In this document: positions 842 through 35,575 of the stretch, in pieces
Position numbering within the stretch: the first letter of the stretch is position 1
Layout of the letters: each line of letters begins with the position of its first letter
Origin: a virus
Strand: one strand, 5' to 3'
Virus record (IMG/VR): IMGVR_UViG_3300024349_000326
Location: 1-64,000 of that record
Length of the DNA stretch: 64,000 bases
Position numbers and translations under genes: made by a program
The notes under the pieces: generated by a model
What the model was told of the DNA's origin: nothing
Database searches by the model: none
The model's input: the letters and a program-made list of their open reading frames with translations, nothing else

Positions 842-863
842 CGAGTTTTGGGAGTCATGTGTA
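842..863 (+). promoter_or_regulatory. 22-bp motif CGAGTTTTGGGAGTCATGTGTA (copy 1) in divergent intergenic region
   Basis: Identical 22-mer recurs at 35548-35569; flanks also similar (TTyCTGGAAA upstream); lies 20 bp upstream of ATG 884 with GAGGAG SD at 869-874. Confidence 0.6.
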
Positions 864-883
864 TGGTGAGGAGTTAGTGCGTA

Positions 884-1432
884 ATGCAACGTGTCACCGA
901 CCTGGCTGATCCACGCCGCTGCAAGGGCGCGAGCCTCGATGGTCAGTGCCAGAACGTCGCCGAAGAGGGGTCGGATTACTGCCGGGTTCACGGGGGACAC
1001 GATCAGGCACCTGCTCGACGCCTGAAGCAATACCTCTTGACGAAGGCCCAGGACCGCGAGCGGCTGGCTCAGCTTGCGGAAAATGACGCACTCAAGACGC
1101 TGCGGGAAGAGGTGGTCGTCGCCTTGGGGCAGTTGGAGCGGCGGCTGAGTCTGGCCAATCGGTCGGATGCCGAGTTTCTGGCCGCCTATCCCGAAGTCGA
1201 GAAGTCACTGAAGACGCTCGCCGAGTTGAAGAAATCCAATTTCTCGCTGGAACAAAAGTCCGGTGCCACGCTCTCGCGCGAGCAGAGTTTCGCGCTAATT
1301 CGGCGGGTGATCGAGATTATCGTGGACGAGTTGGAGGGCATCACGGACTACGAGCGGATCGTCGAGAGCATCACCATGCGAATCCTGGCACTGGTCCAAC
1401 GCGCCGGCAACTCCGAAGTCAATCCCGAATGA
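884..1432 (+). CDS. hypothetical protein, first rightward gene after control region (182 aa)
   Basis: ORF with SD GAGGAG 9 nt upstream; N-terminal Cys/His cluster (C..C..CRVHGGH); helical remainder. Confidence 0.55.
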   Translation: MQRVTDLADPRRCKGASLDGQCQNVAEEGSDYCRVHGGHDQAPARRLKQYLLTKAQDRERLAQLAENDALKTLREEVVVALGQLERRLSLANRSDAEFLAAYPEVEKSLKTLAELKKSNFSLEQKSGATLSREQSFALIRRVIEIIVDELEGITDYERIVESITMRILALVQRAGNSEVNPE

Positions 1433-1638
1433 ACCTCGTCTGGTGCGCCTGCGGCAGACTTGTCCGGTATCCCGGAGAGGATCGCTGCGAAGATTGTTGG
1501 GCGGACGCCCAATCGGCGTCGGATAAGCGGCGGCCCGCCAACGTCAACACGATGGCCCAATTGAGCCGGGAGGGATGCGATGTTCCCGTTCACGCGGAAA
1601 CTCGTGCTGCCCGGCGAGGCCGGGGTCAAGCCCGGTGA
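1429..1638 (+). CDS. small Cys-rich protein (CxC...CxxC)
   Basis: ATGA overlap with upstream stop; 69 aa; overlaps next gene by 59 nt so extent uncertain. Confidence 0.3.
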   Translation: MNLVWCACGRLVRYPGEDRCEDCWADAQSASDKRRPANVNTMAQLSREGCDVPVHAETRAARRGRGQAR

Positions 1639-2191
1639 CATCATCGGATTCAGCGGCCGAAGCTGGCTGAGCGCCGGCATCAACATCGCCACCTACGGAA
1701 TTCCCTTGTGGGGACTCAGCCATGTTGGCGTGATGGCCAACGCCCCGGACGGACGCCTGTTGATCTTCGAGAGCACGTCGCTGGACGGCGACATCCCCTG
1801 TGAAATCACCGACAAGCCAATCTGCGGCACGCAAGCCCACGCCCTGGACTTCATCCTCGGGCATTATGACGGCAAGGCATACCACTATCCGCTCTATCGG
1901 CCGCTCTACCGGAATGAGGACGAACGGCTGACGGAGTTTCTGATCGACACCATCGGCGTGCCTTACGACGCGATGGGCGCGTTTCGTTCGGCGGGTGTGG
2001 GACTGTCGTGGATCGAGTCGCTGTTTCGTGAGCAAAGCCTGACTTCGATCTTTTGTAGTGAGTGGGTGGCCGCTGCGTATGCAGTGACGGGACTGCATCC
2101 AACTGACAACGTGAGTCGCTGGAATCCCAACCGCCTCTGCCGTCACTTACGCGGCCACAACATCCTCTGCAAGCCTCGGAGGCTCAAATGA
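1580..2191 (+). CDS. permuted papain-fold (YiiX/DUF830-like, NlpC/P60 superfamily) cysteine peptidase; endolysin candidate
   Basis: GGAGGG SD; motifs GDIIGFSG...SHVGVMA and downstream catalytic Cys in IFCSEWVAAAY, characteristic of permuted NlpC/P60 amidases. Confidence 0.55.
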   Translation: MFPFTRKLVLPGEAGVKPGDIIGFSGRSWLSAGINIATYGIPLWGLSHVGVMANAPDGRLLIFESTSLDGDIPCEITDKPICGTQAHALDFILGHYDGKAYHYPLYRPLYRNEDERLTEFLIDTIGVPYDAMGAFRSAGVGLSWIESLFREQSLTSIFCSEWVAAAYAVTGLHPTDNVSRWNPNRLCRHLRGHNILCKPRRLK

Positions 2192-2745
2192 AACGAATCC
2201 TCTTCGCGTTGGTCCTGCTGGTTTCGGTTGCGGGCTGCGAAGTCGTCGAGAATCGCGGAAACCGTGCGGTAACAAAGGAACGCCCGGTCGTCAACGTCCC
2301 GCTGGCGATGCGGCAAAGCAACTGGCTGGGCAGCAGCCGCGAAGGTTCGTGCGTCCATGCCTCCATGATCTCGCTCTTCCGCTGGCAAGGCCGTTACAGG
2401 ACGGCCGACTACTGGCGAAAGACATACGGCAACGGCGAGTGGCCGGACGACATGGCCGCCAAGTTCGACCGCGAGGGAATCCGTTACGCATACGTCGAGA
2501 ATGGAGACGTGCGGTTCCTGGAATGGGCCTGCCGCACACGGCGCGGCTGCGGCATCACGGTCATGGGCGGTGCCCACATGGTCGCCCTTGTCCATTTGGA
2601 CGATAAGTGGGCCGCCGTGCTCGACAACAACAACGTCTCCAAGTTTATCTGGGTTCCCCGCGAGACTCTGATCGCGGAGTGGAAAGCCAGTTACGGGTGG
2701 GCGGTGACGCCGATCTACACCCCGGCGGCCCCGCTGCCCCAGTAA
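2188..2745 (+). CDS. lipoprotein with papain-like (C39-like) Cys-His-Asp arrangement
   Basis: Signal peptide plus lipobox LLVSVAGC; GSCVHASMISL (Cys) ... GGAHMVALVHLDD (His/Asp); ATGA overlap with upstream gene. Confidence 0.45.
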   Translation: MKRILFALVLLVSVAGCEVVENRGNRAVTKERPVVNVPLAMRQSNWLGSSREGSCVHASMISLFRWQGRYRTADYWRKTYGNGEWPDDMAAKFDREGIRYAYVENGDVRFLEWACRTRRGCGITVMGGAHMVALVHLDDKWAAVLDNNNVSKFIWVPRETLIAEWKASYGWAVTPIYTPAAPLPQ

Positions 2746-2777
2746 GTCACCGAGTCACTAACCCTGTGAGGAAACCA

Positions 2778-3473
2778 ATGAATCGAGTCCTCTTGAGCGT
2801 CTGTCTGTTGCTCGCTGTGTTGGCGGCCCCGTGCTTCGCGGACACCGCCACGGCCAATGGCGTGCTGGCCGAACAGCGGGTCGTGAACCTGCCCAACGAT
2901 CAGGGCAAATGGTACATCAGCGTGGTCGGCAATGCCAACGACACTGCGTATACCCGCGTGCTCGGCTGGTTTGAGGCGAACGCCAGCCTCAAGGGCCTGA
3001 AGAACAAGGTCCATTTCTGCCCGGTCACGGCTGGCACCCCGATCTATCAGGAACGGTACGCCGCGAACGTGAAGGGCCTGCCGACCGTGCGGGTCCAGAA
3101 GCCGGATGGCACGGTGGTCTACGAGGCGTCCGGCAAGAATCTCCCTATGACGGCCGAGGGTCTTTACGGCGCGATTGCCGGTGCGGTCCACACGGCCCAG
3201 GGCATCCGACCGATTCTTCCGTGGCGGCGTGACATGGAGCGGCGCTGCCCCGGACCCGGCCCCTGCCCGACGCCGAATCCGCAGCCGCAGCCCCAACCCG
3301 ATCCTGAGCCGCAGCCGATTGACGACGGCGGGGCACCCGATCTGGACCCGCAGCCGGCGGCCGAAGGTTGGCCGCTCTGGGGCTTGGCCTTGCTCGTCAA
3401 CGGCGGCTTCCTAGTCGGCCTAGCGGCAGGCTACGGCCGCAAGCTGGCGACGAAGTTGCGTGGCGTGAAGTAG
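2778..3473 (+). CDS. secreted protein with Pro/Gln-rich linker and C-terminal TM anchor
   Basis: SD GAGGAAA; signal peptide MNRVLLSVCLLLAVLAAPCFA; PNPQPQPQPDPEPQP linker; hydrophobic C-terminus WPLWGLALLVNGGFLVGLAAG. Confidence 0.55.
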   Translation: MNRVLLSVCLLLAVLAAPCFADTATANGVLAEQRVVNLPNDQGKWYISVVGNANDTAYTRVLGWFEANASLKGLKNKVHFCPVTAGTPIYQERYAANVKGLPTVRVQKPDGTVVYEASGKNLPMTAEGLYGAIAGAVHTAQGIRPILPWRRDMERRCPGPGPCPTPNPQPQPQPDPEPQPIDDGGAPDLDPQPAAEGWPLWGLALLVNGGFLVGLAAGYGRKLATKLRGVK

Positions 3474-3554
3474 TTGCGCGTGCGTTTCGTGTCCTCTGTC
3501 CCCTGACCATCCGGCCGTCTGAGCGGCCACACTCGAACACCTGGAGAAGAAAAG

Positions 3555-3977
3555 ATGAACCCCACCGTTGTGATCTGGATTCTGGCCGTTGCAGTGGCCG
3601 TGCTCGTCGGGCGTGAAGTCGGCAAGTGGCTCTTCGGCACCAACGAGAAGCTGATGACCAAGAAGCGGGCTGCCCAGAAGTTGGCCGGCATCCTCCGCGA
3701 CAACGGCCTGCGACTCTTGCCCGCGTTGCTGGAAGACTTCGCCGTGGGCGACGTGCAAGACATGGTGGAGAAGATTCACGATGTCTGCAAGATCGTCGAT
3801 GCCGGCAGCGATGCCATCCTCAAGGAACTGGAACAGACCTACGAGAACGTGCTGACCAGGAAGCTCGCCACACCCGAGGGCCTGGCCTATATCAAGGCCC
3901 GGATCGCCGAGGTTGAGGCCGCGCCGGCACCCGTTCCCGAAGCCCCGAAGCCCGCTACGTCCCCGGTCAAGTCGTAA
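3555..3977 (+). CDS. type-II membrane protein (N-terminal TM plus helical ectodomain); i-spanin/holin-like candidate
   Basis: SD GGAGAAG; TM WILAVAVAVLV followed by amphipathic helical region and Pro-rich tail. Confidence 0.5.
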   Translation: MNPTVVIWILAVAVAVLVGREVGKWLFGTNEKLMTKKRAAQKLAGILRDNGLRLLPALLEDFAVGDVQDMVEKIHDVCKIVDAGSDAILKELEQTYENVLTRKLATPEGLAYIKARIAEVEAAPAPVPEAPKPATSPVKS

Positions 3978-4078
3978 CCGACTGATTCACCGCGCCCGGC
4001 TGCGGTCATACGCTCACCGGGCCGGTTCTCCGATGGCTCCCGACAACTTGCCGCGAGCCATCCGAGAACCGGAGATCA

Positions 4079-4426
4079 ATGATGAATCGTCGAAGTTTCC
4101 TGACCGCCACGATGCTGCTCGCGCTGGTCACGGGCTGCGAAGTGCCACAGCAACGGCAAAACCAAGGCGGTTGCCGCCGCCCCAAGGTGCTGGCCTTCAC
4201 CGCTTCCTGGTGCGCCCCGTGTCAGCGGGCAAAACCCGCCCTGGTCCAGATTCAGGCTGCGGGCGTGGACGTGGAGATCATCGACATCGACGTTCATCCC
4301 GACTTGGCGAAGGAATACGGCGTCACCGAGGTGCCGACCTTCCTCGTCTACGTCTGCGGGAAAGCGCCGGTGCGGACCAACGACATCCTGGTGGTTGTCT
4401 CCCTGACTCGTTTTGGGTGCAGGTAA
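4079..4426 (+). CDS. Tat-signal lipoprotein thioredoxin (WCAPC active site)
   Basis: MMNRRSFLTATMLLALVTGC (twin-Arg plus lipobox); thioredoxin CxxC motif FTASWCAPCQ; C-terminal TEVPTFLVY typical of thioredoxin fold. Confidence 0.7.
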   Translation: MMNRRSFLTATMLLALVTGCEVPQQRQNQGGCRRPKVLAFTASWCAPCQRAKPALVQIQAAGVDVEIIDIDVHPDLAKEYGVTEVPTFLVYVCGKAPVRTNDILVVVSLTRFGCR

Positions 4427-4623: not shown

Positions 4624-4632
4624 TGTCCCTCC

Positions 4633-6306: not shown

Positions 6307-6319
6307 CGAGAGGTTTGTC

Positions 6320-8728: not shown

Positions 8729-9250
8729 ATGGCTATCGACGCCACCTTCTACGGCACGCTGGACGAGGCCGACGAATACTTCGCCAACCGGCTGCATGAG
8801 ACGGCCTGGACCGAGGCTTCCGCGAATGACCGGCGCAAGGCGCTCCTGGCCGCGCGAGGGATCATCGACGCCTTGAACCACAAGGGCAACAAAGCGAGCG
8901 TTTATACGCTCTTGCTGGCGAACCCATCGGCTACACAAGAGCAAATCAGGGCGGCAGAGACGACCCAGGCGTTGGAGTTTCCGCGCGGGGCTGACACGGC
9001 GGTCCCCGAGGCCATTCGCGTGGCTTCCTACGAGATCGCCTATGCCCTCTTGGACGGCAAAGACCCTGAATTGGAGTTGGAGAATCTGGCCGTCAATGCG
9101 ATGGGGTACGGGGCGGTGAAGACCAGCTACGAGCGGTCGCAACTGCCCATCGAACACATCATCAACCTGGTGCCGAGTTCTGCCGCGTGGCGCTTGCTCA
9201 AGCCTTTTCTGCGCGACTCGGACGCCCTGAAATTGTCACGACTGAGCTAG
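8729..9250 (+). CDS. hypothetical head-module protein (connector/adaptor candidate)
   Basis: 173 aa, helical, between portal and scaffold. Confidence 0.45.
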   Translation: MAIDATFYGTLDEADEYFANRLHETAWTEASANDRRKALLAARGIIDALNHKGNKASVYTLLLANPSATQEQIRAAETTQALEFPRGADTAVPEAIRVASYEIAYALLDGKDPELELENLAVNAMGYGAVKTSYERSQLPIEHIINLVPSSAAWRLLKPFLRDSDALKLSRLS

Positions 9251-20425: not shown

Positions 20426-21403
20426 ATGGCCTACGAACGATTTGCAAACGGCGGCCTCTCCTCGCTGGATGCCGCCATCGACAACGACGATCTCGCCTTG
20501 ACCGTGAAGTCGGCTGTCGGATTCCCCACCGGCGGCAACTTTCGCATCATCATCGACAACGAGATCATGCTGGTCACGGACGTACAGGGCAAGACCTTCA
20601 CGATTACGCGGGCACAAGAGGGGACCAGCGCCGCCAGCCACGATGCGGATGCGGCGGTCTTCCATATTCTCACGGCCGGTGCCTTGGCTCAGCGGGACAT
20701 TGAGCAGTTTGCCGCCGGCGCGATCGCCAACCGCGATGTGGCCGGGCAGGCAGGCCGGCTCTATTTGCCGACCGAGGGCTATATCGCCCGCGACAACGGC
20801 CTCGAATGGGAGCGGATGCCCTTCTGGCGCTTTACCCCGCCGAACGCCGGAGACTTCACTTGGGTCAACCAGGGCAGTGCCACGGTGACGGATCGCAAAG
20901 GGATGATGGTCCTGGAGACGCCGAGCGTGGCATCGGGCGAGAATCTGCGGTGCCAGGTCAAGTCCGCGCCGGCGACCCCTTACACGATTACCGTCGCCTT
21001 GCTGGCTCACGGCCCCATCTACACGACTGGCTATACGCTTCCGCACTACGGCATTTGCTTGCGCGAGAGCGGCTCGGGCAAGTTGCTGGTCTACGGCTTC
21101 GGCTATAACAGCTATCCGTTTCGCTTTCAGTACGCGCAGATGACGAACCCCACGACGATTGCCACCGGCTCCATCGTGGACACAACGGTGGCCCGGCACT
21201 GGCCACAGTGGCTCCGCGTCAGTGACGATGGCACTTACCGGAGGGTTTACGTCTCCGGGGATGGTGTCAAGTGGAATCTCGCGGTGTCTGCCGAGTCCCG
21301 CACGGCGTTTCTCACGGCTGACCAGGTGGGCGTGTTCGCCAACAGTTGGAAAAACACCTACGTGCCGCGCGTCATTTCTTTCTTGCATTGGAGCGAATCC
21401 TAA
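20426..21403 (+). CDS. tail fibre / receptor-binding-like protein, paralog 1
   Basis: 325 aa; shares conserved N-terminal ~100 aa and WVNQGSAT core with the next two genes. Confidence 0.55.
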   Translation: MAYERFANGGLSSLDAAIDNDDLALTVKSAVGFPTGGNFRIIIDNEIMLVTDVQGKTFTITRAQEGTSAASHDADAAVFHILTAGALAQRDIEQFAAGAIANRDVAGQAGRLYLPTEGYIARDNGLEWERMPFWRFTPPNAGDFTWVNQGSATVTDRKGMMVLETPSVASGENLRCQVKSAPATPYTITVALLAHGPIYTTGYTLPHYGICLRESGSGKLLVYGFGYNSYPFRFQYAQMTNPTTIATGSIVDTTVARHWPQWLRVSDDGTYRRVYVSGDGVKWNLAVSAESRTAFLTADQVGVFANSWKNTYVPRVISFLHWSES

Positions 21404-22386
21404 TGGCTGAGCAATTCAAGAACCTCGCCAGCACGACTCTCAACGGCGCGATCGACGATTCCACCACCACGATTACCGTCGCCAGCGCGATGGGCTTCAC
21501 GGGCGGCGATTTCCGTATCCTCGTGGACAGCGAGATTATGAAGGTCACGGCCGTGAGTGGCTCGGACCTGACGGTTGCGCGGGGCGCGGAGGGGACGAGT
21601 CCCACTGCCCACGACAACGGTGCTACCGTTCGTCACGTCCTGACGGTCGGCGCGCTCGACGCCCACGACCAGAATGATCTTGTGGTCCGGGACGCCTACG
21701 CCAGCAAACCCGCTGCCGGCGTGCCAGGGCGCATCTTCTTGCCGAGCGATGGCATCTTCTTCGAGCGCGACAACGGCTCGGCGTGGGAGAAGTTCGGCCC
21801 GATCTGGCCGATGACCCCGCCCCAAGCCTCGGATTTTCCGACCTGGGTGAATCAGGGTTCGGCGACCATCACGGACAACAGAGGGGCGATCTGGTTTGAG
21901 TCGCCGTCCGTGAGCGGCACCAACTACCGGCTGCGGGTGAAAGCCTATCCCAGCCCGCCGTTCACGGTGGAAATGGCGTTCATGTGTCTCATCACCCCGA
22001 ACACGAGCAGCTATCCCGGTGCCGGACTCATCATCCGCGATGACGTGTCGGGCAAGTTGCAGCACTATGGGGTCTACGACACGAGTGGCAAGATCGGGGG
22101 CATCAATCGTCCCAGTCCCACCGGCAGTGCCAGCGCCATCACGGGTTGGCCTGGGTCGGGGCAACTCGACCAGACGGAATCGGGTCTGTTGTGGGTCAAG
22201 TACGAGGACGACAACACGAACCGCAAGATTTCGATTTCCACGGACGGTTACTCGTGGGTGCAGATGGTCAGCCTCTCCCGAACCGACTACCTGACGCCGA
22301 CGCAAATCGGAATATATCTGCACGCGCCTCAGACCACCCCTGAGAGCAACCAGGGGGCAACTTTCTTTCATTGGAAGCAAAGCTAA
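21403..22386 (+). CDS. tail fibre / receptor-binding-like protein, paralog 2
   Basis: TAATG junction with paralog 1; same N-terminal motif (GDFRILVDSEIMKVTAVSGSDLTVARGAEGTSPTAH); divergent central/C-terminal part. Confidence 0.55.
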   Translation: MAEQFKNLASTTLNGAIDDSTTTITVASAMGFTGGDFRILVDSEIMKVTAVSGSDLTVARGAEGTSPTAHDNGATVRHVLTVGALDAHDQNDLVVRDAYASKPAAGVPGRIFLPSDGIFFERDNGSAWEKFGPIWPMTPPQASDFPTWVNQGSATITDNRGAIWFESPSVSGTNYRLRVKAYPSPPFTVEMAFMCLITPNTSSYPGAGLIIRDDVSGKLQHYGVYDTSGKIGGINRPSPTGSASAITGWPGSGQLDQTESGLLWVKYEDDNTNRKISISTDGYSWVQMVSLSRTDYLTPTQIGIYLHAPQTTPESNQGATFFHWKQS

Positions 22387-23366
22387 TGGAAACCTTCGCC
22401 AATCAAGCCGTTACCACGCTCTCGGCCGCGATCAGCAGCGTGACCGCCACGAGTTGCACGGTCGTTGACGCCACGGCGTTCCCGGCGACGGGGAACTTCC
22501 GCATCAAGATCGACAGCGAAATCCTCATCGTCACGGCCCGCGCGGGCAATACCTTTACCGTGACGCGCGGGGCCGAGGGGACCACGGCGGCCACGCACGC
22601 CAGCGGTGCGAACGTCATTCATCTGCTGACGAAGGGCGGTCTGGAGGCGAGGGTCGCCAATCGCTTCATCTCGGACATCTACGACAACAAGCCGGCTGCC
22701 GGCGTCAAGGGACGCCTTTTCCTTCCTACGGACGGGTTGTTCCTGGAATACGACGATGGGGCGGCGTGGCACAAGTACGGGCCGTACCGGCGGCTCAAAG
22801 CGCCGCCGGAGATCGGTTGGTCCTGGGTGAACCAGGGCAATGCCACGGCGACGTACATTGACGGCCGGATTGTCCTGGAAGACCCTGATCTCGATGCCGC
22901 CGATCCCCAGCTTCGCCTTTACGTCCGACCCGCTCCGCAATGGCCGGCAACACTGACGATGGCGTATCTCTTCAACGGGATTGGCGGAGACACGCCGCGT
23001 ATGGGCTTCTGCATCCGCCAACACAGCCCCGGCATCAGCTATGACGGTTACATCGGCGCGTGCGGCATGTTCTTAGGCGGTACGCAGTGGCAGTCGTATG
23101 GTCAGTGGCTCACCTCTCCAACGAGCACGAGTTCGAGCTGGAGTTGGGACGACTACTTCCCTGCCCAACGGCTCATTTGGACGCGCTTCGAGATTTACGG
23201 CGACAGAAAGCGCTTCTATCTCTCGGCGGACGGCGTGAATTTCATCAAGGTGAAGGACGACAGCATGGGCAGCTATGCCATGCCTAACCAGGTCGGCATC
23301 TTCATCGACCCGCAGGACAACAATCAGCCTGTCTCTCTGTCTCTGGTCCATTGGGAAGAGAGCTAA
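22386..23366 (+). CDS. tail fibre / receptor-binding-like protein, paralog 3
   Basis: TAATG junction; motif GNFRIKIDSEILIVTARAGNTFTVTRGAEGTTAATH; C-terminus LVHWEES parallels FLHWSES / FFHWKQS. Confidence 0.55.
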   Translation: METFANQAVTTLSAAISSVTATSCTVVDATAFPATGNFRIKIDSEILIVTARAGNTFTVTRGAEGTTAATHASGANVIHLLTKGGLEARVANRFISDIYDNKPAAGVKGRLFLPTDGLFLEYDDGAAWHKYGPYRRLKAPPEIGWSWVNQGNATATYIDGRIVLEDPDLDAADPQLRLYVRPAPQWPATLTMAYLFNGIGGDTPRMGFCIRQHSPGISYDGYIGACGMFLGGTQWQSYGQWLTSPTSTSSSWSWDDYFPAQRLIWTRFEIYGDRKRFYLSADGVNFIKVKDDSMGSYAMPNQVGIFIDPQDNNQPVSLSLVHWEES

Positions 23367-23369
23367 GCG

Positions 23370-25931
23370 ATGGCTCAGACCGGCAAGCTAGGCACCGCCG
23401 ATTCCCGACTGGCGAACGTGCAACTGGCGTTTGCCGCTGCCGAGCCATTGCCGCCCTCGGTCACGACGGGGAGCGGCCGGCTCGGCGGGCAGTTGGGAGA
23501 CACGGTTCTCGCCCTCGGCGGGGTGATTGGCGCGAGCGTCATTCACCTTGCAGCCGAGAGCGTGCTTGCGGCTGCGCATACGGCGGCCGGCGAGGGCGTG
23601 TTCGCGCCTCATGCGTCTCCGCTTTGGGCCTTGGGTGGTCAAGACTCTCAACTGGGCGACACCGAACTGGCCTTCTCCGGTGCGGACGCCGCGCTGCCGA
23701 CGATTACTTCCCAGAGCGGCCGGCTTGGCGGGCGATTGGGCGATCTGGTCCCCGGTCTCGGCGGGCTGGTCGGCGCGGGCGTCATTCATCTGTCCGCTGA
23801 AAGCGTGCTGGCGATCGCGCAGACGGCGGACTCTGCCCCCACGTTCGCGCCCCACGCCTCGCCTCTTTGGGCCTTGGGCGGTCAAGACTCCCAACTGGGC
23901 GATACCGAACTGGCTTTTGCCGGTGCCGAGGAGGCGCGGCCGGAGACTGGCGACCGCACCGGGCAGCTTGGCACCCTCAATTCTCTCTTGGGTAACATGC
24001 GGCCCGCCCTGGGCGAAGAAGAGGGCGGCGGCGGGGCCAACATCGTCTATGCCGATGCCGAGAGCCACTTGGCGGTGTCGGCCGAGGCGGCTACGAGCGT
24101 CGTGCGGACGTGTGCCGCCTCCAGCGCACTGGTCCTGTCGGACGCCGCTGGACGCAACAATCTCCTGAGCGGGGCCGCCGAATCGGCGGTCAGCCTGGAC
24201 ACGGCGGCAGCCTTTACGGTGGCGCGGGCGGCGGCGGCCGAGAGCACGCTGGCCCTGGCAGATGTGGCCGGGCGCAACAATCTGCTCAGCGGTGCGGCCG
24301 AGTCTCCGATCAGCCTGGATGTAGCGGCTGGATTCACGGCCGCATGGGCGGTGGCGGGCGAAAGCACGCTTGTCCTGACGGATGCGGCGGCCAATATCGG
24401 CGGTCAGCTTATCGAGGCGGCGGCAGAGTCTACGCTGGTCCTGGACGTGATGGCCGACTTCACGGTCGCGCGGGCGGCGGCGGCCGAGAGCGCACTGGCC
24501 TTGGCCGACGCAGCCGGCCGCAACAATCTGCTCAGCGTCGGCGCTGAGTCCGCGATCAGCCCGGACACGGCGGCGGAGTTCGCGGTGGCACGGGCGGCAG
24601 CAGCGGAAAGCGCGTTGGCCTTGGCTGATGCGGCGGGCCGTAACAACTTGCTTAGCGCCAGCGCCGAGTCGGCACTCAGTTTGACCGTCGAAGCGGCCCG
24701 CGTCTTGCCGGCCGTTATCGAGGTGGCGGCCGAATCCGCGCTCAGCTTGACCGGGGCCGCCGGGCGAAATAACATCGTCGCTGCCGCAGCCACAAGCACC
24801 TTGGACCTGACCAGTGCGGCGACGTGCATTCATGTTGTCCCCACCTTGGTCAGCGCCGAGTCGGCGGTCAGCCTGGACACGGCGGCGGCTGGCTTGGTCG
24901 TGCGGACAGGATGGGCTTGGGACGATCTTTGGGACTTGTGGCACGAGGCGTCCGTCGTCGTCGTTCGGAAACTGGCCGCTGAAAGCCCCCTCACGCTGGC
25001 CCAGTCGGAAGTGACCGCGCGGCCGTGGTACTTGTCGGTCGAGACCCCCGTTCAGACCATCACGGAGGAATACGATCCGCAAGTTGACGAAATGGTCACG
25101 CGGATCGAGGGTCTGCAAGACGCCGCCAGCATGGCCCGGCCGCTGCCGATGGTGGTCCACCAGCCGATCCCGCTCGGGCAGACGGCCTCGGTCGTCAAGG
25201 TCAAGCCCACGGCCATCAACGTCTCGGCCGAGAGCGTCCTGGAACTGCTGGGCGAAGTCCGACCGAACCAGACCGGCGACGTGGGACACTGGCTGGCGTT
25301 CACGCAGACGGCCACGGTCGATAAGTGCAAGCCGGCCAGGTCCACCTTGGAGTTGGCGGCCGAGGCGGCGACGGTTTGGACCGGCCCGCGCGATGCGGAC
25401 TCGGCGCTCAACCTCCGCCAGTCGGCGACGTACTATCTGGTCTCGGCCGGCATCCTTCAGCGGTATCATCCGTTTGTCGGGGCTGGGGCACCGGGCGCGC
25501 CGACGCCCCCGCCGCTTGTACTTGAGGGTCCGCGCCCCGGCGTCACGGTCACGTTCCAGTTGGTCTATCCGGCGACCGGCACCGTCACCGATTCGGTGAC
25601 ATTCCGAGCGCCCAACTTCGGCAACAAGGATAGGCTCGGCTTCAACCGCGTCCTGCGCGAGACTCGCGGCGGCACACTGATCGTCTTTGCCGATCCGATG
25701 TGGCCGAAGATTCAGACCCTCGTGCTCAATTTCTCCGGCCTCACGAGCGACCAAGCCCAGCAGTTGCTTGCGTTCCTGGACGCCCACCTCGGCGAAGAGG
25801 TCGGCGTGTACGACTGGGAGCATCGCTACTGGACCGGCGTGATTACCACGCCGACCGACCCGGTGGTCCAGGACGGCAAGGACCGTTTCTCGGCGAGCTT
25901 CGAGTTCGAGGGTGAGTTGGTGCCGGCTTAG
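23370..25931 (+). CDS. repeat-rich tail fibre-like protein (853 aa)
   Basis: Two ~81-aa N-terminal repeats, then about seven 40-aa Ala-rich repeats (AAESxLxLxDAAGRNNLLSGAAESAVSLDTAAAF), and a distinct C-terminal domain. Confidence 0.6.
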   Translation: MAQTGKLGTADSRLANVQLAFAAAEPLPPSVTTGSGRLGGQLGDTVLALGGVIGASVIHLAAESVLAAAHTAAGEGVFAPHASPLWALGGQDSQLGDTELAFSGADAALPTITSQSGRLGGRLGDLVPGLGGLVGAGVIHLSAESVLAIAQTADSAPTFAPHASPLWALGGQDSQLGDTELAFAGAEEARPETGDRTGQLGTLNSLLGNMRPALGEEEGGGGANIVYADAESHLAVSAEAATSVVRTCAASSALVLSDAAGRNNLLSGAAESAVSLDTAAAFTVARAAAAESTLALADVAGRNNLLSGAAESPISLDVAAGFTAAWAVAGESTLVLTDAAANIGGQLIEAAAESTLVLDVMADFTVARAAAAESALALADAAGRNNLLSVGAESAISPDTAAEFAVARAAAAESALALADAAGRNNLLSASAESALSLTVEAARVLPAVIEVAAESALSLTGAAGRNNIVAAAATSTLDLTSAATCIHVVPTLVSAESAVSLDTAAAGLVVRTGWAWDDLWDLWHEASVVVVRKLAAESPLTLAQSEVTARPWYLSVETPVQTITEEYDPQVDEMVTRIEGLQDAASMARPLPMVVHQPIPLGQTASVVKVKPTAINVSAESVLELLGEVRPNQTGDVGHWLAFTQTATVDKCKPARSTLELAAEAATVWTGPRDADSALNLRQSATYYLVSAGILQRYHPFVGAGAPGAPTPPPLVLEGPRPGVTVTFQLVYPATGTVTDSVTFRAPNFGNKDRLGFNRVLRETRGGTLIVFADPMWPKIQTLVLNFSGLTSDQAQQLLAFLDAHLGEEVGVYDWEHRYWTGVITTPTDPVVQDGKDRFSASFEFEGELVPA
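23472..23957 (+). repeat. tandem ~243-bp duplication inside fibre gene
   Basis: Two adjacent, roughly 85 % identical units (SGRLGGQLGDTV... / SGRLGGRLGDLV...); boundaries approximate. Confidence 0.7.
24060..24900 (+). repeat. about 7 tandem 120-bp coding repeats inside fibre gene
   Basis: Recurrent GCCGGGCGCAACAATCTGCTCAGCGG... units encoding AAGRNNLLSGAAES; boundaries approximate. Confidence 0.65.
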
Positions 25932-29253: not shown

Positions 29254-29295
29254 CGGCAAGTAGACGTTCAAGGTAAGTGCGGCAAGTGCGTTTGG

Positions 29296-29327: not shown

Positions 29328-29352
29328 TTTGTCTTTCTGAGAGGAGCATCTT

Positions 29353-29928: not shown

Positions 29929-29931
29929 GCG

Positions 29932-30321
29932 TCAAGACTGGCGTGCCGGGCAGTTCTGGCACTGGTCCAGTGTGACTTCGCAGCCGAAGTGCTCGGCCTC
30001 CGGGTTGCCGCAGATGCCCGCGATGTTCAGCGCGCCGTCAAGCACTTGGACTTGGAGCATCCGCAGTGTGCAGAGCGGCCACGCTGGATAGAGGCGCGAG
30101 CCTTCTTGCCGGAAGCCGGAGAGAGTCGGCGGAGGTCCGGGGAATTGCAGGGAGCCGTCCGGGTGAATCGTGGGCCGTCCTTGAGTCATTTCCACGTCGG
30201 GAATCGCCTGCTCCAGGAGGCGATAAAAGCTCGCGGGCGAGCCACCGGAATAGACAAGGTAGTTGCAGCTTCCCGAGGGTGTCGGGCGGCGGGGTTGGTC
30301 GTTGGGGCAATCGCATGGCAT
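29932..30321 (-). CDS. Cys-rich hypothetical protein
   Basis: 129 aa; MPCDCPND... and C-terminal GICGNPEAEHFGCEVTLDQCQNC. Confidence 0.4.
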   Translation of the reverse strand: MPCDCPNDQPRRPTPSGSCNYLVYSGGSPASFYRLLEQAIPDVEMTQGRPTIHPDGSLQFPGPPPTLSGFRQEGSRLYPAWPLCTLRMLQVQVLDGALNIAGICGNPEAEHFGCEVTLDQCQNCPARQS

Positions 30322-30326
30322 GGGTT

Positions 30327-30773
30327 TTACCAGAAGTCTCGTGGGCAGTCTTCTGTGGCCATCTTGATCTTGTTGAGCGCGGCATAGCCGTTCTCGGCCA
30401 CTCGGCAGCCGCAGCCCCGGCAGATTTGCCGCTCAGGGTCGAACCACTTGCACGGCTTGCAGTGCTGGTAGAATATCCGCTCGACCTCCTTGTCGGATCG
30501 CTCGGGCCGACCGGCCGCTGTCCACGCAATCAATGCCTCGGCATACGACAGCGTTCGTCGCACGATGCCCGGAGTCTCGGGTGGCGTCTCAGGCGGGGGC
30601 GCGGCGTCGTCATTCACTTCGACGTGTGGATGTGGTGTCTGGCATCGGCTACATGCTCGGGCCGTCACTATCATTCGGCAGGTCGGTTTGTCTTCGTCGA
30701 GACAGACGCGATGCACGACACGGCCCGTTGGCGTCCGTGAGTCAAAGGCTGAGGAGCACTCAGGAAAAGTCAT
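30327..30773 (-). CDS. Cys-rich hypothetical protein (start uncertain; longest ORF reaches 30863)
   Basis: C-terminal CKPCKWFDPERQICRGCGCR cluster; Met31 chosen so the gene does not overlap upstream gene. Confidence 0.35.
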   Translation of the reverse strand: MTFPECSSAFDSRTPTGRVVHRVCLDEDKPTCRMIVTARACSRCQTPHPHVEVNDDAAPPPETPPETPGIVRRTLSYAEALIAWTAAGRPERSDKEVERIFYQHCKPCKWFDPERQICRGCGCRVAENGYAALNKIKMATEDCPRDFW

Positions 30774-30789
30774 TGAAGGCGATTCCCTT

Positions 30790-31497
30790 TCAGCAGCAGC
30801 TTGCATTTGCGGTGTCCCAGACGGTGAAAGGGTAGCCACCGGGCTGGGAATACATCGGAACATCCACCGGACTCGTCCAGACGAACGTACCCGAGGGCGC
30901 GGAAGTTATTACGCCATCGCAGTTGGCGGAGACGACACCCAGCTCGAACACGTCCGAGTGAAACGTCGGGGCTCCTTGGTACGGATACAGCCAATACTCG
31001 ATATGCCATTTGGCCAGGTGGCCTACGTTGTTCAGGCCCGACCACCCATAGCCGTATCCTATGGCGATGGTGAAGTCGTAGTTCTGCCTGTAAGTCCAGT
31101 AGAAATGCCAATGGTCGCCGTCGAACCATTCAGTCTTCGTGAATTGCTGCGGGTAGATCAGATACGGAACGTAGGATGATCGGCCGTGGATGGAGCGCGC
31201 GTCATTGACGACGGCCTGGGTGCATCCGCAGTCGCAGTTGTCGATTACCTCGTTGAGTTCGTCGATGATGTCCTGCTTCCATTTCACCCGCTCGCACCAC
31301 TCGTCCGACTCCGGCGCATTTCTGCACATATACATCAGCCTGTTGCGGACAACACTGATGTCCGTAGCGGACCAAATATGCCCCGCCTCCACTTCGGGCA
31401 GCGGATCGAGATAGTCCGCATAGTCGCACGGTCCAATGAGGTCGTTGACCCGCTGGATGATGTCGTTCCACTTGGCTCGCGTCCAGACTTGTCCCAT
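30790..31497 (-). CDS. Trp/Tyr- and Cys-rich hypothetical protein
   Basis: 235 aa; CDCGC motif, many W/Y (WHFYWTYRQNYDF, GYGYGWSG), C-terminal ASCC. Confidence 0.45.
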   Translation of the reverse strand: MGQVWTRAKWNDIIQRVNDLIGPCDYADYLDPLPEVEAGHIWSATDISVVRNRLMYMCRNAPESDEWCERVKWKQDIIDELNEVIDNCDCGCTQAVVNDARSIHGRSSYVPYLIYPQQFTKTEWFDGDHWHFYWTYRQNYDFTIAIGYGYGWSGLNNVGHLAKWHIEYWLYPYQGAPTFHSDVFELGVVSANCDGVITSAPSGTFVWTSPVDVPMYSQPGGYPFTVWDTANASCC

Positions 31498-31511
31498 CGT
31501 GCCCTCCGCCC

Positions 31512-32132
31512 TCAGAACATCCGCAGCATGGCGTGGTAGACTCCCGCCTCGGCGATGCAGTCGGCCAAGGCGTCGTGGGGGTTAGTGTTGGTGACGCCCA
31601 GCTTCTTGCACATGGCCCCCAGGCCGACGAACGGGAAGGGCACCGGCTCGCCCGCGAAGGCGGCCTTGTCGTTCAACGAGACCGCGTAGAGCATTCCGTC
31701 GCGGGCGTGGCTGTGGAAGATCGCGTCTACCTCTGCTACGCCCAGCCATGCCTTGAGGAAGCTCGACTCGAAGGCCCAGTTGTGGGCCAACGGCACGAGG
31801 CACTTTTTGAAAGGCAGCTTCAACGCCAGCACCCAGTCGTGGAGCCAGTCGGCCACTTGCTCGGCCTCCGGGGCGTGGAGCAAGAGTTCCGTCATGGGAA
31901 TCTTGTGCTTATGCTTCGCCGCCACCGACTCCCGCTCCGGGTGCCTCGGCTTGATGCGGGTGTAGAAGGGGCGCACGTTGGCGAGCGGCTTGAAGTCCGA
32001 ATTCAGAGGCACCACGGCGATCTGGATGATTTCGTGGTAGCCGGGTTGCGTGCCCGTGGTCTCCAGGTCCACGGCTGCCATCAGGCAGCCGTTCAGATGG
32101 ACCAGGCCGGGGTAGACGATGGAATCAGCCAC
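31512..32132 (-). CDS. DnaQ-like 3'-5' exonuclease (DEDDh)
   Basis: Exo motifs AVDLETTG (I), HNWAFE (II), HDALADC (III). Confidence 0.8.
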   Translation of the reverse strand: MADSIVYPGLVHLNGCLMAAVDLETTGTQPGYHEIIQIAVVPLNSDFKPLANVRPFYTRIKPRHPERESVAAKHKHKIPMTELLLHAPEAEQVADWLHDWVLALKLPFKKCLVPLAHNWAFESSFLKAWLGVAEVDAIFHSHARDGMLYAVSLNDKAAFAGEPVPFPFVGLGAMCKKLGVTNTNPHDALADCIAEAGVYHAMLRMF

Positions 32133-32583
32133 GGCTCTTCCTCTGCTTCTTGCAGTTGGGGTTCTTGATCTCTCGGGTGCCCCTGCGCATCTTGCGGATC
32201 GTCAGGCGGGCGGCAAGCGGCTGGTAGCTCGGCATGTCGTTCAACTCGGCCGGCAGCAGCCCGCGCTCGATCATCTCCTCGTAATGGATCAGGGCCATCG
32301 CGTTGAACATGATCGCGGCCAAGTGGTCCTCGTCGCGTTTGCCCTGCTGGTACTTCATTACGTGCCGCTTGAGCGAGGCCACACAACGGCTGAAAGGCAT
32401 CCCCCGTTCCCAGTTCCGCTCGGCATACTTGGCTGCGCCCATGCGGAGCCAATGCCCCTGCCGCTCCTCGGCGAACGGAGAGATCAGGTCGGGTCGGGGC
32501 TTGTCGTCCGCCGTGTCCCGAATCGCCATGCCCTTGCCGAAGAATTGCCGCTTGCCGCTGTCCGTCATGCCGTACTTGCTCAT
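32125..32583 (-). CDS. phage NTP-pyrophosphohydrolase-like (dATP/dGTP diphosphohydrolase-type domain) protein, tentative
   Basis: Pattern GAAKYAERNWERGMP...SLKRHVMKYQQGKRDEDHLAAIMFNAMAL resembles phage MazG-like / dNTP-PPase domains; 8-nt overlap with exonuclease gene. Confidence 0.4.
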   Translation of the reverse strand: MSKYGMTDSGKRQFFGKGMAIRDTADDKPRPDLISPFAEERQGHWLRMGAAKYAERNWERGMPFSRCVASLKRHVMKYQQGKRDEDHLAAIMFNAMALIHYEEMIERGLLPAELNDMPSYQPLAARLTIRKMRRGTREIKNPNCKKQRKSRG

Positions 32584-32756
32584 TGTTCTTCTTCTCCGGG
32601 GTTCTCAGGTGAAACTTCGATGATGTCGCCGCCGTATTCGTCGGCGAAGGCCGCCTCGTCTTCCGGCCGCTGGTCCACTTCGACTTCGGCGACCAACTCG
32701 GCCCGCAGCACCGAGCGCGAAAGGAAAGCGGCGGAACGATAAACGCGAAGGGTCAT
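32580..32756 (-). CDS. small acidic ORF (58 aa) linking primase and downstream genes
   Basis: ATGA overlaps at both ends (primase stop / this start; this stop / next start); MTLRVYRSAAFLSRSVLRAELVAEVEVDQRPEDEAAFADEYGGDIIEVSPENPGEEEQ. Confidence 0.3.
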   Translation of the reverse strand: MTLRVYRSAAFLSRSVLRAELVAEVEVDQRPEDEAAFADEYGGDIIEVSPENPGEEEQ

Positions 32757-35404
32757 GGCTTAGCCTTTTCCGCCGGTTTGAGGGTCAGATGGGAAACAAA
32801 TGCCTTGTGGTCCGTTCCGAAGATTCTGGTGTGCCGGATGGGAAGTTCCTTGGAGACGGATTTCTTTGACCAGAGGTGCTTTTCGTTGGCGGGGAGCCAT
32901 TGCTGAAAGCGGTCGTAAAACTCCGCGAACAGGGTATGCTTGTCGGGCGTCTGCGTGCAGCATTGCAGGATGAATTCCTCCAAGGCCGTCTGATTGTCTT
33001 CCTGCGCGGACAACTTGCTGGCGGTTGTCACGACCGGCAGCCGCAGCCGGTCGATGATGGGTGGCAGGTCCATGTGCATGATCGTGTAGAGGAAGTGTGG
33101 GGCCTCCTGATCGAGGAATACTTCCATCTTCGCTTTGGCGATTTTCTGCTCCTCCAGCAGATCGTTGACCTGGATTGCCGTGATGCGGGTATCGCCGGGA
33201 AAGACGGGGCAGTTCCCCCGGCTGTTGGCCGTCTGGACCCAATGGGTTGCGTTGGGTTGCTCAAAGCTGTCGCACCGCATCTTGCGGATCAAGATGGTTC
33301 GTCCCGTGCTGTATTCTTTGAGTTTGGCGTGGGCACCCGGCGACTTGGTGATGTCCACCTCTTCTACCGCGCAGATGATCGCGCCCGCCAACTCATTGTT
33401 GAATTCACTCGTGAGCGCCCGTTTGGCTTGGACTACGCCTTTCGTCACCAGCCGTTGTAGGGACTCATAGAAGATGCTCTTGCCGCAGTCTTCCGGGCCA
33501 AAGAAGAAGAGGTAGGGAGTGGGCTGAAAGGGATCGCGGAAGGCGCAGGCCACCCAGGCACGCAGATAACTGGCTCCAGTCCTGACGTTTGCGTCGATCG
33601 CCCAAGGCAACTCGCGCAGGGCAGGTGTTAGCTCGTGGCCGATGTGGTCGAAGATCATGTCCCAGTGCGGATGGTGCGGGACTTCATCATCGGCCAATTC
33701 GGCGGGCCGGAACTTGAATTGCGCGGCGTCGAGATTCCATTGCCGGCCGCCGGGGTACTCCTCGCGGAAGGGCAGATTGACCAGTCGCCAACCGCGTGCG
33801 GCGGCTGCGCCCATGATGGCTTCCGCCTCCGCCTTGGGATGATTCAGGCTTTGCAGCAGCATCTTGACGTTTGAGGCCGGATGCCGCACCCATTCCTTTT
33901 CCTTCTTCATCACCCAGCCGGCGTGCTCGACGGCGGCCGTCTCTACGGCTCGGATGATGTGGTCAAACTCATTGAAATCGAGTTCGTCGTCATCCTTGGG
34001 GTCGGTCTGAACCTTGAAAATCCTGACGTACTTGCCCCTCTTGTCGTCCCAGCCTTCTATCGGGTCTTCGTTCTTCTTCCGTTCGATCTCCACGACCAGT
34101 CGGCCATCTTTGTGGGCCTTGAGCGTCACTTTGCGGTCGTCGATGTCGTTCGGCAGTGCGAGGTCTTCGCCCAAGGTCTTGGCGGCCTGGATAGCGGCAT
34201 CGGCCGAAGAAAAGACGTAACCGCCCTCCTCGCGCTCTACGCCGCCGAAAAGCGTGCAAGCCGTCTCCAGGTCCGGGTAGCGATTGAAGTAGCAGGTGGT
34301 CCAACCTTGCCCGTCCTGGGTCCAGGTGTCGGCTTCGGCGATGCCGGGCGAGAAGCGGTAGACCCGCCACGCACCGTTGGGCAGCGGGAAGAGAAAGCAG
34401 TTCGGCGTATTGGGGTCGCGGCCTTGGGAGATCGTCTTGAAAACGCCGACCAGCTTTAGAACCTTGCCTTCTTCGTCCAACAGCTTGCGGAGGGCCGTCG
34501 TATGCGTCTGTAGCAGATGGTGGTCGGCGACCCAGAGCGTGGTCGCGCCGGATCGCATCAGGGCCTCAATCTGCGCCTTGTGCGAGTCGTCCAAAGGGAT
34601 GATCTTCCGGCTGGATGCCAGGGTCTCGAAGGGGTCTTGATCGTCCTCGGCAATCTCGTTGACCCGAATCTTGGATCGGCGGCCCTTGACCACTTCAATG
34701 TGATCGCGCCAATTCTTCGGCAGGTCGGCGAGCGAAAGATGCTTCGTGGCCGGCTTGATGACTTCCAGGCCGTGGTTCTCGGCCGACAACTTCCGGTGCC
34801 ATATCCACATGACGTGCCCACAGGCGTCGATTGCACTGGCGAAGTCAAAGCCCACTTCGGCAGACATCATTCCCAGGATGCAACGGGCCAAGGCGGCGTG
34901 CTCGGTGTGGTTCGCCGTTGGCACGCCGGCGTCGTCGAGATAGACGTAGAGATGGATGCCGTCTCCGCCGGTGCTGCGGCGGACTTCGACGTAGGGTAAG
35001 GCGCACGCCGCCTGTTTGACCTTCTCCAACTGGTCATCGTCGATGCCAACGCCTTGGGCGTGGCCGGTCAGGGCGTCGAAATCGTAGCCGAAATGCCGGG
35101 AGACTCGGGCCTTCCATTCCCATCCCGTCATGCCGATGCCTTCGGCGTACAGATCGAAGGGGTAGCCGACCTTGTAGTCTTCCCACGTCGGGTCCGTGGC
35201 CGCGTTTTTCGGGATGCGGATGGAGTGCCAGGTGTCGCTGCCGTTAGTCCAGGTGGACTTCTTGCCGGCCACCGGCTCGCCATCGCCGGCAACGACGTTC
35301 ACCTGGGTCTCCATCGCCGTGGACCACCGATCCACCAGATCGGCGTTGGCTGGCGTCTTCCGGGCGTGGAGGAAGCTGTAGAGGGCTTCGCTTGCTAAGG
35401 GCAT
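32753..35404 (-). CDS. primase-helicase (prim-pol N-domain plus P4/D5-type SF3 NTPase)
   Basis: 883 aa; N-terminal GDGIHLYVYLDD prim-pol-like motif; C-terminal Walker A LFFFGPEDCGKSIFYESL and Walker B ICAVEEVD. Confidence 0.8.
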   Translation of the reverse strand: MPLASEALYSFLHARKTPANADLVDRWSTAMETQVNVVAGDGEPVAGKKSTWTNGSDTWHSIRIPKNAATDPTWEDYKVGYPFDLYAEGIGMTGWEWKARVSRHFGYDFDALTGHAQGVGIDDDQLEKVKQAACALPYVEVRRSTGGDGIHLYVYLDDAGVPTANHTEHAALARCILGMMSAEVGFDFASAIDACGHVMWIWHRKLSAENHGLEVIKPATKHLSLADLPKNWRDHIEVVKGRRSKIRVNEIAEDDQDPFETLASSRKIIPLDDSHKAQIEALMRSGATTLWVADHHLLQTHTTALRKLLDEEGKVLKLVGVFKTISQGRDPNTPNCFLFPLPNGAWRVYRFSPGIAEADTWTQDGQGWTTCYFNRYPDLETACTLFGGVEREEGGYVFSSADAAIQAAKTLGEDLALPNDIDDRKVTLKAHKDGRLVVEIERKKNEDPIEGWDDKRGKYVRIFKVQTDPKDDDELDFNEFDHIIRAVETAAVEHAGWVMKKEKEWVRHPASNVKMLLQSLNHPKAEAEAIMGAAAARGWRLVNLPFREEYPGGRQWNLDAAQFKFRPAELADDEVPHHPHWDMIFDHIGHELTPALRELPWAIDANVRTGASYLRAWVACAFRDPFQPTPYLFFFGPEDCGKSIFYESLQRLVTKGVVQAKRALTSEFNNELAGAIICAVEEVDITKSPGAHAKLKEYSTGRTILIRKMRCDSFEQPNATHWVQTANSRGNCPVFPGDTRITAIQVNDLLEEQKIAKAKMEVFLDQEAPHFLYTIMHMDLPPIIDRLRLPVVTTASKLSAQEDNQTALEEFILQCCTQTPDKHTLFAEFYDRFQQWLPANEKHLWSKKSVSKELPIRHTRIFGTDHKAFVSHLTLKPAEKAKP

Positions 35405-35489
35405 GGCAACTCTCTAAGGCCGCGTCGCGATTGATCCCGTGTCGTGCGTATAAACGCACGGTGCTCGGCCTCGAATAGCGGGCCGCGTA

Positions 35490-35575
35490 GACACCTACAC
35501 ATGACTCCCAAATCTCCAGTTTTTTCCGACCATTTCTGGAAACTTGGCGAGTTTTGGGAGTCATGTGTAGGTGTC
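35490..35575 (+). promoter_or_regulatory. perfect 23-bp inverted repeat pair (operator-like); right arm contains copy 2 of the 22-bp motif
   Basis: GACACCTACACATGACTCCCAAA (35490-35512) and its exact reverse complement TTTGGGAGTCATGTGTAGGTGTC (35553-35575), 40-bp spacer containing TTTCTGGAAA; lies between divergent primase and ParB-like genes. Confidence 0.75.

Follow-up and report, generated by a model that had tools for sequence, protein, structure and literature searches.

Probable private promoters of a prophage-encoded sigma factor at the divergent gene junctions of a temperate Planctomycete prophage, and their modular co-variation with that factor

We analysed a stretch of 64,000 nucleotides (nt) of viral DNA, positions 1 to 64,000 of IMG/VR record IMGVR_UViG_3300024349_000326 (hereafter, the window), in which a preliminary description made from the letters alone had pointed out a shared 22-nt motif and an inverted repeat at two control regions. 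Our comparisons make it probable that the three copies of this element are phage-private promoters of the prophage's own sigma factor, encoded at 52187-52861, that they start the main lytic operons, and that they diversify module by module among related prophages. What the computations themselves show is where the copies lie, that the architecture is conserved, that the copies within each genome are identical, that the protein is a sigma factor, and that sigma and DNA co-vary segment by segment.

The exact 22-mer CGAGTTTTGGGAGTCATGTGTA occurs on the plus strand at 842-863 and at 35548-35569, just as the preliminary description had it, and shuffled sequence yielded 0 matches. The upstream context of both sites (ATTCCTGGAAA / ATTTCTGGAAA) is also shared, as part of a direct repeat of 38 nt with 84% identity (family D18) that confirms the common TTyCTGGAAA string reported earlier. 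At the second site, the 22-mer had been described as the right arm of a perfect 23-bp inverted repeat (35490-35512 / 35553-35575). The repeat is indeed perfect, and a longer form of 31 nt has 94% complementarity, with arms 32 nt apart. What had been overlooked is that the left arm is itself a complete third copy of the same directional unit, located at 35496-35517 on the minus strand with 2 mismatches. With up to 3 mismatches tolerated, the 16-nt core TTGGGAGTCATGTGTA marks exactly 3 sites in the window, and extending the search to the remainder of the source prophage, as had been proposed, revealed no additional 22-mer copy (a total of 3 in ~72 kb). Far from being frequent inside coding regions, the motif is intergenic in all three copies, which lie at the window's sole two divergent gene junctions. 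Each copy is oriented into the operon that it precedes: copy A into gene 884 and the structural genes, copy B into the arm headed by a ParB-like gene, and copy C into the primase arm. Small open reading frames (ORFs) running through the motif (MTPKTR..) were regarded as spurious, as neither the strand nor the context is common to the three copies.

Each copy can be read as a complete directional promoter of ~40 bp, consisting of a -35-like box (C/T)(T/C)GGAA, a 17-nt spacer with TTTGG, an extended -10/discriminator region (GGGAGTCATGTGTA in the window) and GG. The spacing is constant, with exactly 17 nt between the hexamer (CTGGAA, CTGGAA and TCGGAA) and AGTCAT in all three window copies. Putative promoter A (826..866, plus strand) has its box CTGGAA at 830-835, the 17-nt spacer with TTTGG, the -10/extended region AGTCATGTGTA, and a predicted start at ~864-866, just ahead of the Shine-Dalgarno (SD) sequence GAGGAG of gene 884. 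Putative promoter B (35532..35575, plus strand) has CTGGAA at 35536-35541 and a predicted start at ~35570-35571, and the end of copy B lies 23 nt ahead of the ParB-like start codon. Putative promoter C (35486..35531, minus strand), the left arm of the "palindrome", has the box TCGGAA (reverse complement of 35524-35529), its core at 35496-35517, and a predicted start at ~35495-35494. The "palindrome" would thus be promoters B and C placed back to back, with predicted starts ~75 bp apart, and the inner "palindrome" between the arms corresponds to their -35 boxes, which are 6 nt apart on opposite strands. The preliminary description had proposed an operator/promoter set recognised by a dimeric regulator. 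We retain the promoter set at the divergent control regions but not the dimeric operator, given that the single unit of 17-22 nt is asymmetric and without internal symmetry, that site A is a lone unit, and that the arms of the second site have centres ~60 bp apart and lie back to back, each facing its own gene.

Transcription would most likely start at the GG after TA, that is, at the element's 3′ edge, because the element is separated by only 3-5 nt from a conserved SD (AGGAG) in the A copies, as well as in the B copy of relative L067. With a start at GG, the variable core would extend from about -14 to -3, where sigma regions 3.0, 2.4 and 2.3 act. Other ways of reading the element as a promoter were considered: sigma-54 and Bacteroidetes-type promoters were rejected on spacing (a comparison made by eye), while a SigB-like reading (GTTTTG-N12-AGGTGT) and the use of TAGGTG as the -10 box were disfavoured, as the start would then fall inside or after the conserved SD. 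Scans for Rfam families, tRNAs, and sigma-70-consensus promoters or terminators were all negative.

The proposed reader of these promoters, a protein of 224 aa encoded on the plus strand at 52187..52861, is a genuine sigma-70-family protein. Taken as a single sequence, the ORF has weak matches only, but a profile of 21 homologues matches SigF (1l0o_C, E = 1.4e-11), SigK, and RpoD and RpoS region 2, with a weak match for region 4. The structural matches of its AlphaFold model are confined to sigma factors, and some of its homologues carry the JGI name "sigma-70 family". Three stretches of the protein are of special interest: residues 88-107 (52448..52507, plus strand), comprising a loop and region 2.3 (..NWNPTDCIGA); residues 124-134 (52556..52588, plus strand; IVPPHTSKYRA), which are equivalent to region 3.0; and residues 193-206 (52763..52804, plus strand), the helix-turn-helix of region 4.2. 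The last of these contains the recognition helix, which is the sigma's most variable stretch, and the sigma as a whole diverges among relatives by 30-60%, as opposed to 15-25% for the primase.

Finding these relatives depended on protein comparisons. A blastn search of both junctions against 50,697 phage records gave no match, and an exact 16-mer search in IMG/VR found unrelated contigs only, in which the motif overlaps a gene start. A degenerate 17-mer scan recovered the relatives' arm pairs, with most of its other matches on contigs outside the set of relatives from the protein search. There are dozens of these relatives in IMG/VR, metagenomes and metagenome-assembled genomes (MAGs), with primases 41-86% identical; close ones are located in MAGs of Thermoguttaceae and Planctomycetaceae. 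Around 35 related phages and prophages, on IMG/VR contigs and in Thermoguttaceae/Planctomycetaceae MAGs, keep the promoter architecture. For instance, 33 of 34 primase loci (primases 58-86% identical to the window's) have an inverted pair of the same architecture in the primase/ParB spacer, and the distance from the -35 box to the core, anchor to anchor, is 27-30 nt in 45 of the relatives' 50 arms.

What is kept in architecture changes in sequence from one phage to another. The version of the window is TTTGGGAGTCATGTGTA, while other phages have TTTGGCAGTCTTTTATA, TTTGGGGGCCATGTATA, TTTTCGTTAGGTCTA and more; by genome, 3300007072_000340 has GGCAGTCTTTTATA, 3300036987_000041 has GGCAGTCTTGTATA and JAXGPP010000005 has GGGGGTCATTTGTA. 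Within a genome, on the other hand, arms B and C are identical from TTTGG to TA in all 15 closely related genomes, and three more distant ones fit too; mismatches between the arms are restricted to the flanks, and it is the core that differs between genomes. The distant copy A, before the homologue of gene 884, is of the same version as the arms in every one of the four contigs that hold both sites. Because this matching copy lies tens of kb away (34.7 kb in the window), hairpin complementarity alone is insufficient, and a trans-acting reader is therefore needed.

The preliminary description had considered the binding partner unknown, listing the sigma factor and the ParB-like proteins among the candidates. 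The sigma is now the best supported of these, as it co-varies with the element segment by segment across related genomes, whereas the adjacent ParB-like protein does not. Loci centred on the exonuclease gene allowed us to pair sigma and element in 26 distinct genomes, and we carried out the segment-wise tests in 13 closely related genomes with family-wise permutation, taking windows of the adjacent ParB and primase proteins as controls. The distance between whole sigma proteins correlates weakly with the distance between cores (rho 0.28), and an attempt to read the region 4.2 helix against the core as a "code" failed; the signal appeared only after both protein and DNA were split into segments. 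The -35-like box (3 nt ahead of the A-run) then correlates with residues 193-206 of region 4.2 (r = 0.59, p = 0.011; best ParB and primase windows 0.29 and 0.35), and the top eight sigma windows for this box all fall within region 4.2. The 5′ half of the core, GG[GC][AG]GT, correlates with residues 124-134, the region 3.0 equivalent (IR.P..S..RA), and also with region 2.4 (r = 0.77, p < 0.0002; ParB and primase 0.48 and 0.59). Finally, the 3′ half of the core, [CT][AT]T[GT]T[GA], correlates with residues 88-107, the loop and region 2.3 (r = 0.59, p = 0.0008; ParB and primase 0.23 and 0.29). Thus, every DNA segment correlates solely with its own sigma region, and the order of the DNA segments is the known order of sigma-promoter contacts. 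The ParB and primase windows are weaker (0.23-0.59) although their genes adjoin copies B and C.

These correlations can be put as simple rules. For region 3.0 and the 5′ half of the core, PPRS(K/R)Y goes with GGCAGT, HTSK(Y/H) with GGGAGT, HTSK(D/N) with GGGGGT, and HES(E/D)RL with TGGGG; for region 2.3 and the 3′ half, NPTDCIG goes with (C/T)ATGTG, APVEF(L/M)GM with CTTTTA, and AC(Y/H)(M/I)GT with CATTTG; and for the region 4.2 helix and the -35 box, ..TQRM.. goes with TGGGAAA and ..ST(Y/H)xM.. with CTGAAAA. Moreover, five sigmas are mosaics (L199, 3300035701_009376, JAXGPP, 3300022556_000002 and L208), and in each of them the core halves follow the matching sigma segments. For example, JAXGPP and 3300022556_000002, whose primases are 91% identical, have the same region 3.0 and the same 5′ half but different region 2.3 loops and different 3′ halves. 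Several other proteins were also considered as readers. The ParB-like protein was rejected, as genomes with one and the same recognition helix may differ in their cores, and genomes with the same core in their helices, and so were gp884 and the leftward 75-aa and 175-aa proteins, which are conserved whatever the core.

We propose that the readers of the three promoters would be the host core RNA polymerase together with the prophage sigma, of which region 4.2 would read the -35 box; the core would be read in its upstream half by region 3.0/2.4 and in its downstream half by region 2.3 and the loop before it. Without the sigma, the three promoters would be silent; with it, all three transcription units (structural block, ParB-led arm and primase operon) would be turned on together. 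As promoter B lies upstream of the sigma gene and in the same direction, it could also reinforce sigma expression in a positive feedback. Binding by the sigma, the exact start site, the timing and the feedback are what we infer from the comparisons. The sigma segments and their cognate DNA segments would have changed together, in modular fashion, between related prophages, leaving each phage with a private sigma/promoter pair.

The window contains a second class of phage-specific motif, CAGTTCCGA-N12-TTGCGATCTAT (hereafter, class 2), at 38680-38711, 53420-53451 and 62409-62440 on the plus strand and at 773-804 on the minus strand. All four copies are intergenic and face the downstream genes. 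Among relatives (L199, L187, L221, L216, L213 and L131-L149), other sequences take the place of class 2 and are likewise common to the copies of one genome, such as CACTCTCGA..GTTTGGCAATCTCTC, CACTCGGGA..CGTTGTCCCTT and CACTCCAGA..TTTACGATCTCCC. The idea that the promoters described above (class 1) and class 2 share one version per genome was abandoned, as the similarity within the same genome is not above that across genomes (620 of 720 permutations score equally high or higher). Nor does the first box of class 2 track the region 4.2 helix, the same CACTCCAGAAA occurring with both TQRM and STHAM helices.

Other short sequences accompany the junctions. Upstream of the -35 box in A copies, an extra GTGGAAATT is found at ~18 nt (811-819 in the window) that is missing from copies B and C; it stands at the same distance in 8 of 15 A loci, including the window (the others are L076, L078, L080, L111, L112, L114 and L115), and might serve the structural operon specifically, as an upstream activator or UP-like site. 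A near-palindrome GCGTATAAACGC (GCGT-N4-ACGC; 35446-35457), located between promoter C and the start of the primase gene, is, unlike the promoter core, kept in nearly all of the relatives' primase leaders (L006-L047), distant ones included, and is also found upstream of the gene-884 homologue in L077 and L081, with an extra exact copy in the window within a gene (8898-8909). Either a conserved site for a regulator or a small hairpin in the leader is conceivable here. The start codons of the ParB and primase genes are preceded at 9-15 nt by the sequence GACGCGG (~35584-35590, and 35418-35424 on the minus strand), which also stands just upstream of the leftward class-2 motif (809-815, minus strand) and is kept in relatives at these places. 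Some relatives (L008, L009 and L029) have an additional small ORF between promoter C and the primase gene.

Several points weigh against reading the three sites as promoters of the prophage sigma. The -10 region has no canonical TATAAT and often lacks an A at -11, and the proposed geometry is built on spacing and SD position rather than on a known consensus; the layout GGAAA(A/C), ~16 nt, GTC looks like that of extracytoplasmic function (ECF) sigma promoters, and the protein's best matches are SigF and SigK. The co-variation comes from just 13-15 distinct genomes, with neighbouring proteins and permutations as controls rather than a full phylogenetic model. Some very different region 4.2 helices occur with similar cores, which is compatible with the model solely on the ground that it is the -35 box, rather than the core, that region 4.2 follows. 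Class 2 is a second phage-specific motif of cleaner bipartite form, and the sigma might in principle serve class 2 too. In addition, a repressor overlapping the promoters could co-exist with the sigma, as the prophage must silence these promoters somehow. Beyond the promoters themselves, one may ask whether related Planctomycete prophages are under diversifying selection for mutually orthogonal sigma/promoter pairs, with regions 4.2, 3.0 and 2.3 each swapped or mutated along with its own DNA segment, as a private code that would shield the lytic programme from co-resident or superinfecting relatives in a kind of transcriptional immunity, and with class 2 as an earlier tier; this is a tentative proposal to which we give less than an even chance.

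Among the alternatives, the one that deserves most attention, although we consider it unlikely, is that the sites are operators of a phage-specific immunity repressor that holds the three lytic operons silent in the lysogen, with immunity selection producing both the match within genomes and the difference between them. Like the sites described here, lambdoid immunity operators (OL/OR in lambda) and the stoperators of Cluster A mycobacteriophages are found at lytic promoters, match within a genome and are phage-specific, diversifying between close relatives; stoperators are moreover asymmetric and orientation-dependent. As a temperate prophage that is integrated and encodes a serine integrase, the element must be subject to repression; each of the three lytic operons has its predicted start region overlapped by one of the sites, and sequences that are phage-specific yet identical within a genome are typical of immunity operators. 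Nevertheless, no repressor candidate co-varies with the core (neither the ParB helix nor gp884 nor the leftward 75-aa and 175-aa proteins), and none was identified among the annotated genes, many small ORFs being without annotation; the sites are asymmetric and site A is single, contrary to what a dimer would lead one to expect; and the mapping of three DNA segments onto three sigma regions in the known contact order is not predicted by a repressor model. Unlike in the lambdoid and stoperator systems, the co-varying protein here is a sigma and not a repressor, and there are three sites rather than dozens.

Less probable still are the explanations that rely on the genes next to the inverted repeat. 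A gene with ParB_N and HTH_ParB domains directly follows the palindrome, and the window contains a second ParB-like gene (47063-47932); one could thus think of parS/OB-type sites, acting as a centromere or as dispersed operators of the KorB kind (N15, RK2), and in N15 dispersed centromere sites do lie in promoter regions. This idea is largely refuted, however, by relatives L066 and L048, which have the same recognition helix (HKGTAWIGDQL) with cores that differ at 3 positions, and by L066 and L054, which have the same core with different helices. The highest correlations of ParB windows are r = 0.48 for the 5′ half of the core, 0.23 for its 3′ half and 0.29 for the -35 box, the single sites are not palindromic (a palindrome of 13-16 bp would be expected), and the prophage is integrated and not a plasmid prophage. 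It is similarly improbable that the palindrome is a replication origin and the third copy a cis-acting replication site (ori/crr of the P4 type), all bound by the D5-like primase. The alpha protein of phage P4 does bind repeats at two separate sites, and here an A/T-rich centre lies between long inverted repeats beside a DUF5906 primase-helicase gene, but primase windows track the element no better than background, the window contains no tandem iteron arrays (only one inverted pair and one distant copy), and the gene-facing orientation, the fixed SD distance and the sigma co-variation would all be unexpected.

We give equally little credence to an element acting at the level of RNA or secondary structure (a long hairpin, a cruciform or a pairing of transcripts), in which complementarity would keep the copies identical. 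Arms B and C are perfectly complementary and co-vary, and copy C is antisense to A and B; yet no local partner is available to copy A, which nevertheless has the same version at a distance of 34.7 kb, complementarity is lacking in the stretch between the arms and the inner boxes, Rfam yields no match, and complementarity alone leaves the link to specific sigma segments unexplained. Promoters of a single-subunit, T7-like RNA polymerase of the phage are hardly conceivable, even though a conserved 17-nt block ending in TA and followed by GG would suit them, and T7-group promoters are similar in size, in identity within genomes, in the TATA/TGTA-GG ending and in how they vary between phages (PMC11880802). 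No RNA polymerase gene is found in the window or in the rest of the ~72-kb prophage (proteins without a family match aside), and a -35-like box at a fixed spacing is part of the unit.

It is well known that phages can encode sigma factors that have their own promoters. For example, the promoter of phiEco32 gp36 is tAATGTAtA and that of gp47 of phage 7-11 is GTAAtg-16-aCTA; these sigma-specific promoters differ in sequence and occupy similar genome positions, and the two sigmas are only 15% identical (PMC8948821). As in phiEco32 and 7-11, the sigma described here would redirect the host core polymerase to a few phage-specific promoters before phage operons, divergent sigmas go with different promoters at similar positions, and transcription would start a few bases after a conserved element. 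The differences are that a temperate, integrated phage of a Planctomycete is concerned here, that replication genes would be driven as well as late genes, that our system is known from sequence alone, and that the pairs differ by small modular steps among close relatives (primase ~75-91% identical) instead of a single jump.

Comparisons with other known systems lead to a similar mixture of resemblance and difference. For T7-like polymerases, the co-variation between protein and promoter has been decoded (PMC11880802), and the T7-group pairs are, like ours, near-identical within a genome, phage-specific, co-varying and potentially orthogonal; here, in contrast, the host polymerase would read the DNA through a sigma subunit, a -35 box makes the promoter bipartite, and the copies number only three. 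Late activators of the RinA/ArpU type (PMC3152322) are also activators of a temperate phage acting at a promoter before its packaging and structural operon, but here the protein is a full sigma with regions 2, 3.0 and 4, and its three putative targets include divergent replication promoters. ECF sigma/promoter pairs (PMC5829568, PMC8103513) have in common with ours a compact sigma without region 1.1, an ECF-like geometry and paralogue-dependent specificity; unlike in those pairs, the best matches of our sigma are SigF, SigK and RpoD region 2, an extended -10/region 3.0 contact appears important, and no anti-sigma was seen. What is unusual here is the temperate Planctomycete setting, the sharing of one promoter type by the structural and the replication operons, the back-to-back arrangement of two promoters, and a co-diversification that proceeds in fine modular steps between close relatives.

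If our reading is true, these prophages would offer a natural series of close sigma/promoter pairs in which single residue changes align with single base changes, as in region 3.0, where Y/H as opposed to D/N pairs with A as opposed to G in the core. The recognition rules of sigma regions 4.2, 3.0 and 2.3 would then be readable and directly testable, and the pairs would be a source of ready-made orthogonal expression parts. They would also give a first picture of the organisation of transcription in temperate Planctomycete phages, for which our literature search found no promoter or regulatory description. An evolutionary question is raised as well, namely why a temperate phage keeps changing its private promoter code.

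With respect to the genomic setting, the window is part of the JGI contig Ga0310073_1182841 (82 kb). To its left there are an insertion sequence (IS) element (DDE_3) and host RND efflux genes, and to its right there follow ~8 kb of small genes, an HTH_17 protein, a large serine recombinase of 652 aa and a truncated host ChlI gene, which is likely the attachment site. Because host genes flank both ends, together with the IS and the serine recombinase, the element is an integrated temperate prophage of ~72 kb. A gene call based on GC3 (G+C content at third codon positions) yields four blocks in the window: 1-757 on the minus strand; 884-29928 on the plus strand, a block of 29 kb with terminase and other structural and packaging genes; 29932-35404 on the minus strand, with primase and exonuclease; and from 35598 to the window end on the plus strand, with ParB-like, methylase, helicase, exonuclease, PolA, sigma and ligase genes. 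The gene that heads the structural and packaging block, first after promoter A, is gene 884 (884..1432, plus strand), which encodes a 182-aa protein with a Cys-rich N-terminus. The ParB-like gene (35598..36524, plus strand; ParB_N + HTH_ParB) is the first after promoter B, in the rightward arm that includes the sigma gene, and the D5-like primase/helicase gene (DUF5906; 32753..35404, minus strand) is the first after promoter C.

The replication arm contains three DNA methyltransferase genes (38738-39973, 56453-56968 and 60964-61716) and two HNH endonuclease genes (37496-38158 and 53649-54113), the first of which is inserted shortly after the ParB-like gene and is absent from some relatives. 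At 46042-46245 there is an extremely acidic Asp/Glu-rich repeat, GACGACGAnGAC... (family D2), where the gene call had put a 67-aa ORF on the minus strand; the D/E-rich reading of the plus strand may be the real one. In the tail region, three consecutive paralogous genes for proteins of ~325-346 aa (20426-21403, 21346-22386 and 22371-23366) have internal motifs in common at a spacing of ~975 nt (families D6 and D11), indicating a tandem gene triplication over 20426-23366. An 853-aa ORF at 23370-25931, with diverged internal repeats of ~243 nt (families D1, D3, D4, D5, D8 and D14), probably encodes a tail fibre or adhesin.

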